This document shows, in pieces, positions 747 to 59,216 of a stretch of DNA of 64,000 bases (position 1 is its first letter; each line of letters starts with the position of its first letter). The notes beneath the pieces were generated by a model. It had not been told where the DNA came from. It worked only from the letters and a program-made list of their open reading frames with translations, and did not search any database. This DNA is from a virus (Duplodnaviria; Caudoviricetes). The position numbers were made by a program, and so were the translations under genes. The DNA lies in the IMG/VR virus record IMGVR_UViG_3300031555_004524, positions 64,001 to 128,000 of that record. The stretch is one strand, 5' to 3'.

Positions 747-1697
747 ATGGCTGAATTGATAAGACTTATGACTCCAATAGTACCAGATGGTCAAGATGAG
801 TCAAGAAGTATTGAATACACACCTATTAATTTTGATGCTTTAAATAAAAGCTCTATATGTAATAGGGATTTAAACGAAATGGATAACTCCCCAGCTAAAC
901 GTAAAAAAGCATCTAATAAAATATCAGAAGTTACAACTTCTAGAAAAGAAAAAAAATCAAACGATGATGAACCATATTCTAAAAAATATGAAGAAACAAC
1001 TGCTCAATTAAAAACTGCAATCATGCAAGTTGATGCAGCATTAACAGATATTCATTCAGATATACAGCAGATTCGTTCATCTAAAACATTGAAACGTAAG
1101 TATGATTACTTATCAATGATGAATGGATCTATGGGTCAGTTTATTAATACTAAAGTAACAGCTTTACGAGAAATAAACAATACAATTACAAAATGTAATG
1201 AATTTGAACTTAAGAGAGCTAAAGAACTTAAAGCTGATCTTGCTAGTCAGGCCAATGATGATAAAGCATTGATGGATATGTACAATGCATTTATTAGTAT
1301 TCCTACTTCAGCAGGTATGCCTCTTGGTCCAAGTTTACAAAATATTACTAATAGCGGTGCTATAAACTCAGCAACTATTGTAACTAATAGAGAAAGCGGT
1401 GGAGATGCTGGATATGCAGATTATTTAAGTAGACTTAATCCTAGCCAAAGATTAATGTTATATGAAGATGATCCAGATGTACAGCAGGTAGTAATGTATG
1501 ATGAACAATCTGGTTCTAAATGGTTTGAAATCATGAATCTTAGAACAAGAGAAGTTATTGAAGGTGTAAACAAACATGATATGATGTTTATGGAAGATAC
1601 AACACTTGATTTAGATAATAATATTGCAAGAAATATTAATCTTGGTGAATCTTATCCTATAATTAGAGTAGGTAAATCAGTGATGAATTCTTATTAA
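747..1697 (+). CDS. Hypothetical protein (coiled-coil central region)
   Basis: 316-aa ORF with RBS AAGGAG; no recognisable motif. Confidence 0.6.
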   Translation: MAELIRLMTPIVPDGQDESRSIEYTPINFDALNKSSICNRDLNEMDNSPAKRKKASNKISEVTTSRKEKKSNDDEPYSKKYEETTAQLKTAIMQVDAALTDIHSDIQQIRSSKTLKRKYDYLSMMNGSMGQFINTKVTALREINNTITKCNEFELKRAKELKADLASQANDDKALMDMYNAFISIPTSAGMPLGPSLQNITNSGAINSATIVTNRESGGDAGYADYLSRLNPSQRLMLYEDDPDVQQVVMYDEQSGSKWFEIMNLRTREVIEGVNKHDMMFMEDTTLDLDNNIARNINLGESYPIIRVGKSVMNSY

Positions 1698-1707
1698 AAA
1701 AAATAAA

Positions 1708-1734
1708 CCCGTATGCATTAATTTGCATACGGGG
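1708..1734. terminator. Hairpin between convergent genes
   Basis: CCCGTATGCA-TTAATT-TGCATACGGG inverted repeat with an A-tract on its left. Confidence 0.6.
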
Positions 1735-57911: not shown

Positions 57912-58481
57912 TCACTCCTGTCCTGTTATGATAGTATAATGACTTTTCGGATATAAATACGACATAGGAATGTAATATATTAATCTTTCATCATATATAT
58001 CATCACAACCACCATTATTTATAATATATAGATCATCTAATGAAATTTCTGTTGGAATTGTAGCTGTAACTATTGTAGTATCCATTCTAAATTGCGGTTG
58101 AACGTGCTTCATAGATGCTCTTATAGTTTGTATTAGAAATGTATCGTATCTAGGATCATCTTTCAATTTCAGTGGATAGTTAGCAGTGATCATTTTAGGT
58201 TTAATATCCGCTAATGTCAGACTAATAGTCTTATCTGCATCGTATGTATCATCTGTTATTTTGGCAGAATCTTTAATAGCATTTAATACTAAATCTGAAT
58301 AGTGTTTATGACCATTTTTAGTTAATATTTGTACACCTGTATCACATTTCGATGCCATATCTTTATTTCCAGGCATAAATAATATGAATTCTATTTTTCT
58401 ATTTTTATCCTGTTTTTGTTTTTCACGCTGCTCTTTTTCGAATTCGCATCTCATTTCTTCTGCAAGTTCTAAATCATTCAT
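57912..58481 (-). CDS. Hypothetical protein
   Basis: 189-aa ORF. Confidence 0.5.
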   Translation of the reverse strand: MNDLELAEEMRCEFEKEQREKQKQDKNRKIEFILFMPGNKDMASKCDTGVQILTKNGHKHYSDLVLNAIKDSAKITDDTYDADKTISLTLADIKPKMITANYPLKLKDDPRYDTFLIQTIRASMKHVQPQFRMDTTIVTATIPTEISLDDLYIINNGGCDDIYDERLIYYIPMSYLYPKSHYTIITGQE

Positions 58482-58484
58482 TTT

Positions 58485-59216
58485 TTATACCTCTCTTTTT
58501 GTGAATAATGTTTTGTATTGAAGTTCTATATTTATTCTATGATAATACGAAAATACTAAAGATAAAAAAGTAGCTTCGCATGAATTAATAAAATTAAGAT
58601 GATCTATATTGGAAAAATCTAATAAATATTCTTCAAAAAATACATTAGACTTGCTCAATTTTAATATAATGCATCCGTCTACTTCTATGCCGTATTCTGT
58701 TCTTAAAATATATCTGTATGATGATAACTGTAAGTAGTGTTTGTAACTAGTATGATTACTGGTTTTAAAATCTACTAAATACACTTTACCATTAATCTCG
58801 ATAAGTAAATCCAACGTGCCCCCAAAATAAGGACACGTTAACTCTTTCTCTTCAAATATAATTTTAAATTTGCACTTTAGGATTATTTTCCACCACTCCA
58901 AGAATGAATGAAATGCATTAAATACTTCAATTTGCAATTTGGTGTCATCTGGGAGTATATTATGTTGTATATAATCTTCAATACATTTATGACATAAAGA
59001 TCCTATATTACTTACATTTTCCATTACATTTTTATATTTTTGTCTTTTATATAACCCTATCGAATTTGCCCAAGTCATTAGATAATCTTCATGTAGCATT
59101 GCAGATAAAATTTCAGTTGTTCTTGGAACAGTAATTCCATTGTAAGAGTATTTCTCTGGAAGGAATTTTGAAACTGTATCTGTTATGTCTGTTGGTAATG
59201 AATTTAGTAAACTCAT
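58485..59216 (-). CDS. PD-(D/E)XK exonuclease (RecB/Cas4-like fold)
   Basis: GSLCHKCIE, GGTLDLL, LVDFKTS, QLSSY. Confidence 0.82.
   Translation of the reverse strand: MSLLNSLPTDITDTVSKFLPEKYSYNGITVPRTTEILSAMLHEDYLMTWANSIGLYKRQKYKNVMENVSNIGSLCHKCIEDYIQHNILPDDTKLQIEVFNAFHSFLEWWKIILKCKFKIIFEEKELTCPYFGGTLDLLIEINGKVYLVDFKTSNHTSYKHYLQLSSYRYILRTEYGIEVDGCIILKLSKSNVFFEEYLLDFSNIDHLNFINSCEATFLSLVFSYYHRINIELQYKTLFTKREV

Follow-up and report, generated by a model that had tools for sequence, protein, structure and literature searches.

A lineage-private peptide tag on the DNA-acting proteins of AR9-like jumbo phages is a probable docking or address signal

A short peptide of the form [KRP]-L-F-x-K-[IL] recurs on about 17 proteins acting on phage DNA in an uncultured virus, and its pattern makes it probable that the peptide is a docking or address tag which these proteins share and which one partner common to them recognises. 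The motif came to light in a stretch of 64,000 nucleotides (the window), which covers bases 174434-238433 (minus strand) of a 248,162-bp IMG/VR virus record with a G+C content of 28% (genome G000 below). The DnaB protein encoded in the window is approximately 31% identical to those of Bacillus phage AR9/PBS1 and Staphylococcus S6-like jumbo phages, and AR9 homologues were found for approximately 46 core genes, so the source, as judged by its genes, is an uncultured AR9-like jumbo phage. The tag is enriched, terminal and selected at the protein level, and in relatives its position is kept while the peptide itself is replaced as a set in each lineage. A single co-evolving reader is the best explanation for this last behaviour, which is hard to explain otherwise.

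The original prediction listed a series of such peptides and proposed a phage-wide docking signal for a common hub, a proposal that both the enrichment and the conservation described here support. In a six-frame search every listed peptide was present in the gene named, and one further copy was recovered at the C-terminus of a DHH phosphoesterase. The copies are given below by the window coordinates of their five core residues (aa, amino acids; ORF, open reading frame), together with the PolB gene that runs over the window edge.

1-633 (-): first 211 of 653 residues of the PolB exonuclease half, orthologue of AR9 g132; its C-terminal tail, beyond the window edge, has three tandem tags 12-13 residues apart (RKLFHKF, IKLFHKI, YILFHKI)
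765-779 (+): tag LMTPI, N-terminus (MAELIRLMTPIV...) of p316, 316 aa, ORF 747-1697
4957-4971 (-): tag LFHKI, N-terminus (MKRLFHKIREDTCPIC...) of a 100-aa zinc-ribbon protein, ORF 4678-4980
6828-6842 (-): tag LFTKL, N-terminus (MGKRLFTKLKPNQCPIC...) of a 90-aa zinc-ribbon protein, ORF 6582-6854
7196-7210 (-): tag LFHKI (..RRLIPLFHKIEHTD..), 13 residues from the C-terminus of the N-terminal half of non-virion RNA polymerase beta, orthologue of AR9 g105, ORF 7169-8965
9559-9573 (-): tag-like strand LFHKI, internal in p216, 216 aa, ORF 9109-9759
12513-12527 (-): tag LFEKI (..RKRLFEKITDEE..), residue 116 of the NAD-dependent DNA ligase, ORF 10527-12872
15695-15709 and 15584-15598 (-): tags KPLFRKI and RKLFTKI, C-terminal tail (last exon) of the C-terminal half of non-virion RNA polymerase beta, orthologue of AR9 g089, ORF 15569-16000
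35075-35089 (-): tag LFYKV, C-terminus (..NIPEFLFYKVD-stop) of the DHH/DHHA1 phosphoesterase, ORF 35069-36091
48822-48836 (-): tag LMQKI, N-terminus (MGIPLMQKIENV..) of p145, 145 aa, ORF 48411-48848
51995-52009 (-): tag LFQKI, C-terminus (..KKPLIRLFQKIS-stop) of the DnaB-like replicative helicase, ORF 51989-53833
56294-56308 (-): tag LFTPI, N-terminus (MIPLFTPINKN..) of an SbcD/Mre11-like nuclease, ORF 55175-56317
58494-58508 (-): weaker tag LFTKR, C-terminus (..YKTLFTKREV-stop) of a 243-aa exonuclease, ORF 58485-59216

Most copies do sit at termini or in linkers, as had been proposed, the internal ones being the p216 copy, which lies in a hairpin, and the ligase copy, which lies in a linker. 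The peptides assigned to the tail of the RNA polymerase beta C-terminal half are present too, with the correction that they belong to a 143-aa last exon (15569-16000) of an intron-split gene.

When the residues of the window proteins were shuffled, 0.41 copies of LF.KI and 0.09 copies of [RP]L[FM].[KP]I were expected, against 7 and 8 observed, and none of 300 shuffles equalled either count. Because the motif had been defined on the window, the 170 proteins of G000 outside it could serve as a hold-out. These hold four copies of LF.KI (1.28 expected) and two of [RP]LF.KI (0.09 expected), the latter all C-terminal; among the hold-out proteins the C-terminal half of the non-virion RNA polymerase beta-prime subunit ends in ..KPLFYKIE-stop and a superfamily 2 (SF2) helicase in ..LIRLFNKIDPDRPIKLFHKIE-stop. 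The shuffles thus bear out an enrichment over a composition-matched background. When approximately 163,000 gapped k-mers were scanned without bias over the protein ends of the whole genome, L.HKI (Bonferroni 0.002) and LF.KI (0.014) came first and second. With a slightly wider genome-wide pattern, 27 of 31 copies fall in the terminal zones (the first 15 and the last 45 residues of a protein), which account for 26% of residues. The codons under the motif vary synonymously (Leu TTA/TTG/CTT/CTA/CTG, Phe TTT/TTC, Lys AAA/AAG, Ile ATA/ATT/ATC), which places the constraint on the peptide and rules out a DNA-level motif.

Comparisons were made with seven whole relatives (G001-G007), with AR9 and with three further loci (L172, L173 and L174), each taken as 20 kb around a p216 gene. 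In the seven relatives, the orthologues of approximately ten proteins bear a local peptide at the matching ends: [IV][SRK]F[IV] in G001, [KR]PF[IVT] in G002, [IV]Wx[KR] in G003, xMCxIV in G004, KxFMxR in G005, [KN]AF[ST]xI in G006 and VIxF[HN] in G007. The three loci have tags of their own, [RK]G[IV]xY (L172), [KP]LMx[KRP] (L173) and RIFxK[IL] (L174). All eleven versions fit a six-residue template, (basic)-a-PHI-x-b-phi, in which lineages with K/R at position b and lineages with Y/F there are scattered over the tree. Conservation in orthologues was thus found, in the form of a kept position and a sequence replaced as a set in each lineage. In the unbiased k-mer scan of termini the local tag ranks first in G000, G002, G004 and G005 and within the top eight in G001 and G006, with Bonferroni values of 2e-27 for K.FM.R in G005 (16 proteins), 5e-15 for MC.IV in G004, 1e-9 for KAFS in G006, 1.5e-4 for IKPF in G002 and 1.6e-4 for VISF in G001. 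The G003 list is headed by a W-containing k-mer that fits its tag, and the G007 tag is too degenerate for exact k-mers, yet visible across orthologues. Each lineage's motif is mostly rare on the termini of the seven other genomes.

The replacement can be followed protein by protein. DnaB ends in ..LIRLFQKIS in G000, QAIRFVS in G001, KKVMCTIVPR in G004, KKFMTRVPA in G005, NRAFSYIA in G006 and RDVIFMHKKE in G007, each followed by a stop, and in G000 the tag is preceded by a tail of approximately 110 residues that cannot be aligned to AR9 DnaB. At the same end of p316, whose clade-specific gene adjoins that of the PolB exonuclease half, we found MKPFTRE (G002), MKKVFNRE (G003), MMKQFMTRD (G005), ..QKAFSY (G006), MQRIFTKIE (L174) and MDLIKGITYEE (L172). 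The 100-aa zinc-ribbon protein has MMKIKTISFK in G001, MIEFMQRV in G005, MQKIFQQIREDTCPEC in L174 and MIRGVIYDREDTCPNC in L172, while for the 90-aa zinc-ribbon protein the peptides are MKAFSKLGINECPIC (G006), MKRIFRKLKPDECPIC (L174), MKKLMVKMKLNQCPVC (L173) and MLKRGIVYLNENECPKC (L172). Orthologues of the RNA polymerase beta N-terminal half bear AIRFIED (G001), IVPFIIQ (G002), VKAFSYID (G006), VRIFEKIN (L174), VPLMTPIN (L173) or IRGVLYF-stop (L172), and the tail of the beta C-terminal half has one to five local tags in the relatives (five in G002 and in G006, three in G005). In the ligase the tag sits in an N-terminal extension that the AR9 ligase does not have and that bears one or two tags in every lineage, such as IKPFTR and EKPFIR (G002), KVMCVAV (G004), KVFMVR and KTFMKR (G005), IPIFRKL (L174), PLMVRM (L173) and PGIIYM (L172). 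SbcD starts with MRKVISFVNEE in G001, MRPFHYTT in G002, MRKIWRKLSNEE in G003 and MRDVITFINRE in G007, and p145 is represented by MSNKAFATIS (G006) and MEMIKPFTRPEE (G002). For the 243-aa exonuclease the G002 orthologue has its tag at the N-terminus instead (MKPFIYNTI).

A scan of IMG/VR with the PolB exonuclease half yielded 41 loci at 43-63% identity, and in nearly all of them the alignment ends at approximately residue 595. Beyond that point the tails cannot be aligned, and nearly all of the 40 full-length orthologues hold one to three copies of a lineage-private peptide there. One sub-lineage (L021, L024, L029-L034 and L043-L045) departs from this layout, with a single tag-like peptide (e.g. 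NRNVFVKC) followed by an extra conserved domain of approximately 55 residues (..SDFNNFTEIFNSLKDGYLYSKP..); a Rosetta-stone search of the eight genomes found no free-standing homologue of this domain. In AR9 itself, neither the k-mer scan nor the orthologue comparison revealed such a tag, and its orthologues are 50-105 residues shorter, by tail length. The AR9 DnaB (g007; L113) ends in ..EKDSGIPF-stop. We take this end to resemble the C-terminal tip of bacterial single-stranded DNA-binding protein (SSB; DDDIPF), and from its sequence the AR9 helicase may dock by SSB mimicry rather than by a tag system.

A prediction test of the pattern was made with p216. In an AlphaFold2 model with a mean predicted local distance difference test (pLDDT) score of 82, its tag-like motif (residues 63-67) lies in a beta-hairpin (residues 57-68) of the N-terminal domain, making up the turn and the second strand. 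The C-terminal domain resembles an XRE-type helix-turn-helix, the matches over residues 122-189 being modest but uniform (Z 5.5 to 3.3). The p216 loop tracks the lineage tag in eight genomes, and public metagenomes contain at least 504 homologues, with loops that form a few classes. Three loop classes that had not been seen before (RIFSRV, LMSREY and GISYIE) correctly forecast the tags of the neighbouring genes: in all three loci the RNA polymerase beta halves, the ligase linker, the zinc-ribbon proteins and p316 bear tags as forecast, and the forecast PolB-tail tag was also found in L172, the only locus that reaches PolB.

Of the five non-virion RNA polymerase subunits, four bear the tag (AR9 g154, g105, g089 and the promoter-specificity subunit g226, where the tag is N-terminal). 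On the AR9 map the other carriers are the PolB exonuclease half (g132), DnaB (g007), the SF2 helicase (g156), g242 and the NAD ligase (g095); SbcD, the DHH phosphoesterase, the exonuclease, small zinc-ribbon proteins, p216, p145, p220 and p316 follow, with RNase H in some lineages. Intron-borne HNH homing endonucleases are tagged in relatives, three in G005 and three in G002. Untagged are the virion RNA polymerase subunits, structural proteins, terminase, GroEL, topoisomerase II, primase, UvsX, SbcC, a Dda-like helicase and the PolB catalytic half, and within a complex it is often a single subunit that bears the tag. Since DNA enzymes are tagged and virion proteins are not, we conclude that the tag marks proteins needing to reach phage DNA inside the cell. 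The packaging factor that had been put forward among the possible hubs is unlikely, given the lack of tags on virion proteins and on the virion RNA polymerase.

Some carriers and their partners have features of their own. The g226 orthologue is a single gene of approximately 510 aa in relatives, and in G000 (52014-54604 of the record, outside the window) it is in pieces, split into at least three reading frames of 64, 250 and 96 aa between which lies an HNH endonuclease gene, so it is probably interrupted by introns. The untagged PolB catalytic half (8064-10232 of the record; AR9 g152) has a conserved end of its own, N-Y-[ST]-N-[IV]-[IL]-x-[LF]-stop, of which AR9 has a loose echo (..PTNILTF-stop); it may represent an older, second docking signal whose partner is conserved. 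For p145 no family match was found; its N-terminal tag is paired with a C-terminal tail that is acidic and aromatic (..DLDDYFDGYIEEDDDDC), a layout that recalls small phage SSBs.

In the mechanism we propose, flexible N-termini, C-termini or linkers would present the tag on proteins that act on intracellular phage DNA, and a single phage-encoded receptor with a fast-evolving peptide groove would read it. Drift of the groove would drag all the ligands along, and the receptor would assemble the tagged enzymes at or close to phage DNA under replication. Where a protein has two to five copies in tandem, as in the PolB half, the SF2 helicase and the RNA polymerase beta tail, its binding would be more avid or an oligomeric receptor would be cross-linked. 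The gene for the receptor probably belongs to the clade-specific core set without an AR9 counterpart. Core genes found in all tagged genomes with no detectable AR9 homologue include those for a 173-aa protein, a 280-aa protein, p216, p316 and a 249-aa protein beside the SF2 helicase. We place the 173-aa protein, as a clamp-like 'toolbelt' hub, ahead of a compartment or condensate scaffold (e.g. the 280-aa zinc-ribbon protein), and this ahead of p216, all three being tentative candidates that fall well short of an even chance.

The 173-aa gene (239769-240290 of the record) directly follows the PolB exonuclease half, and lies in the same place in six of seven relatives. Searches for relatives of its product gave no match among PDB chains, Pfam or PHROG families and, with hhalign, no likeness to AR9 g131. 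The 280-aa protein (46515-47357, minus strand of the window), encoded in the replication module, has a zinc-ribbon plus helical domain (C58, H60, C80, C83) between long low-complexity, prion-like tails rich in Q/G/P/M/Y/N, with a conserved C-terminal tip, [TV]xVxxKx[FY]x[VL]. It has the look of a condensate scaffold or of a disordered linker of the SSB type. A model of the zinc-ribbon domain (pLDDT 80) matched only two uncharacterised phage homologues in BFVD, and Foldseek and VIA-align gave no significant PDB match; a complex prediction of this domain with the PolB tail (residues 598-653) scored 0.00, which counts neither way. Profile searches of five clade-specific proteins against PDB sequences returned nothing useful, and Pfam and PHROG scans of approximately 40 proteins identified no hub. 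Co-variation screens over five to eight genomes, which are underpowered, gave no clear signal by closest-pair divergence, mirror-tree residuals or columns following K/R versus Y/F at position b; a 166-aa gene (152014-152514 of the record) was a weak outlier in two of them.

Three other genes were considered as hubs and set aside. The sole clamp-loader-candidate AAA+ gene (33704-34981, minus strand of the window; PF00004 E 2e-24, PF13177 E 0.03, with weak nSTAND3 and DUF815 matches) adjoins the tagged DHH phosphoesterase; it is ruled out as the hub because it is not a core gene. A tubulin/FtsZ-family GTPase with an acidic C-terminal tail (22356-23519, minus strand; PF00091 E 5e-9) adjoins a conserved 306-aa partner gene (21436-22356, minus strand). 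It occurs in six of seven relatives and is absent from AR9 and from the complete genome G003, and this last absence rules it out. GroEL is an unlikely hub, as it is present in AR9 too and would leave the tagging of DNA enzymes only unexplained.

Several observations weigh against a docking tag with a phage-encoded hub of a familiar kind, or against parts of the evidence for it. At E<=1, the six-frame genome search gave no match to the beta clamp (PF00712), PCNA (PF00705), DNA_PPF (PF02916, which we take to cover T4 gp45) or the SSB family (PF00436). The AAA+ gene has orthologues only in G005 and G006, and is thus an accessory gene present in three of eight genomes. The 173-aa protein showed no likeness to T4 gp45 by hhalign, and columns tracking the tag class were not in excess in its gene, which ranked 31 of 49 families. 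By our own estimate from known clamp geometry, tandem tags 12 residues apart probably lie too close together to occupy different pockets of a ring clamp. A longest-ORF rule was used for gene calling, and it may have misplaced some starts and hence some 'N-terminal' positions. Finally, the motif patterns of the relatives were written after the data had been inspected; it was for this reason that the k-mer scan and the three-lineage prediction were run.

If the tag is read by one partner, the nature of that partner can be argued in more than one way. One possibility, tentative but worth stating, is that the tag is a clamp-binding motif and the receptor a cryptic processivity clamp, encoded by the 173-aa gene, which would carry polymerase, ligase, RNase H, nucleases and late RNA polymerase, as in T4. 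PCNA clients include polymerase, ligase, RNase H and Mre11-type nucleases, a set echoed here by the ligase N-terminal region, RNase H and Mre11/SbcD. The distribution of the 173-aa gene, present in all tagged genomes tested, next to PolB in most and undetected in AR9, also suits a clamp, as does a client list like that of T4 gp45, with its polymerase tail and late-transcription factor (PMC2988020). Against this stand the missing likeness of the 173-aa protein to gp45 or to any PDB, Pfam or PHROG entry, the lack of a core clamp loader, the columns that do not follow the tag class and a set of clients (four tagged RNA polymerase subunits, DnaB and homing endonucleases) that would be unusual for a clamp. 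The alternative that the tag is an address, by which a scaffold or import receptor sorts proteins to a phage DNA factory (a condensate without a membrane or a compartment bounded by protein) and multi-copy tails act as multivalent 'stickers', is somewhat unlikely. In its favour, the tagged set is exactly the one needing access to phage DNA, since it takes in HNH endonucleases, helix-turn-helix and zinc-ribbon proteins and leaves out the virion proteins together with the virion RNA polymerase; each of four RNA polymerase subunits has its own tag; and there are up to five tandem copies per tail. A lineage-private signal also recalls chimallivirus nucleus import (PMC11087766). The core zinc-ribbon protein with prion-like tails in the replication module and the tubulin homologue in most members would be in keeping with such a compartment, although tubulin is missing from G003 and no shell protein or importer was identified (no search aimed at ChmA/PicA homologues was made). 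The specific form of this idea, a linear and lineage-private sorting signal into a phage DNA compartment or condensate in a non-chimallivirus jumbo clade, we consider rather doubtful.

The remaining explanations fare worse. A receptor supplied by the host (beta clamp, SSB, RNA polymerase or a nucleoid protein), with tags differing because hosts differ, would account for the failure to find a phage receptor and for the SSB-like end of AR9 DnaB. Host hub pockets are conserved across bacteria, however, and the tags differ radically (LFxKI, MCxIV, KPFV, RGIxY) and do not have the Q of QL[SD]LF; AR9, moreover, is without both the tail system and several of the clade-specific core genes, and we regard a host receptor as improbable. 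Extreme N- or C-terminal placement is typical of ClpX-type tags, and with an AAA+ ATPase gene in the window the peptide might be read as a degron, a terminal signal that an AAA+ unfoldase or protease would use to clear early proteins at a set time. Yet that gene occurs in only three of eight tagged genomes, copies in the ligase linker and in the folded p216 hairpin are internal, and tandem repeats and a tagged late-acting RNA polymerase do not suit timed destruction; a host protease, for its part, would not drive private tags between phages as close as 63% PolB identity. Such a degron is very unlikely. That the peptides have no function, and reflect chance, composition or a DNA element that shows through at the ends of genes, has next to no probability: K, I, F and L are common in a genome of 28% G+C, but none of the 300 shuffles reached the counts, the k-mers are significant after Bonferroni correction, codons vary synonymously and position is conserved through concerted replacement in eleven lineages.

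A separate observation concerns the host. The window encodes a phage protein with a Spo0A C-terminal DNA-binding domain (27041-27844, minus strand; PF08769, E 3e-25), which hints at a spore-forming Firmicute host, and the phage may interfere with sporulation control.

If one receptor reads the tag, it marks the proteins that this widespread jumbo-phage clade brings to its DNA, many small proteins of unknown function among them. It would also offer a natural case of a co-evolving peptide code spread over 15-25 genes and swapped as a full set between close relatives. Such a code could act as an incompatibility barrier between co-infecting phages and could constrain mobile introns through their tagged homing endonucleases, and a portable, lineage-specific tag could be used to direct proteins to phage DNA. 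Were the tag a sorting signal, it would be the first known linear address signal of an organelle type in a phage; the homing endonucleases of introns could reach their target DNA only after acquiring the local tag, and co-infecting relatives would face a barrier in the tag-receptor pair itself.

Among known systems, the tag can be compared with the linear motifs that bind sliding clamps. The PCNA-interacting protein (PIP) box and the beta-clamp motif QL[SD]LF share with the tag a place at the ends of polymerases, ligase, RNase H/FEN and Mre11-type nucleases, enzymes that all dock on one hub. The PIP box and QL[SD]LF are conserved across whole domains of life, whereas here a basic residue precedes a core of the L-F-x-K-I type that is private to each phage lineage. 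The tag matches no known clamp consensus (Qxx[LIM]xx[FY][FY], QL[SD]LF or the T4 LDFL type), having neither the Q nor the acidic LDFL core. The SSB C-terminal tip (DDDIPF) and the acidic tails of T7 gp2.5 and gp4 are terminal peptides that organise a replisome and compete for one site; they share the short terminal form, but are acidic and reside on the hub or on two proteins, unlike the basic-hydrophobic peptide found here on many clients. The closest precedent is the gp45 sliding clamp of T4 and RB69, for which interchangeable clamp-binding C-termini occur on the gp43 polymerase, gp33 and gp55, and two-armed attachment gives avidity (PMC2988020). That system likewise places a short hydrophobic peptide on flexible ends of a replicative PolB and of transcription proteins in a large phage. 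It differs in that 15-25 proteins are tagged here, including DnaB, four RNA polymerase subunits, nucleases and homing endonucleases, that tags occupy N-termini, C-termini and linkers in up to five tandem copies and are replaced wholesale between lineages, and that no clamp or clamp loader is recognisable by sequence. Cargo of the same functional class is taken up by nucleus import in chimalliviruses through the PicA pathway, which also handles replication, recombination, non-virion RNA polymerase and homing endonuclease proteins. For these nucleus-forming phages no linear signal was found, a folded surface patch being recognised in a species-specific manner (PMC11087766), while in the present phage, AR9-like by DnaB and gene order, a plain linear tag exists on termini and linkers. 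A literature search found no paper describing such a tag. It is a hub-docking short linear motif, unusual in its breadth, in its lineage-private code and in its inclusion of mobile endonucleases.

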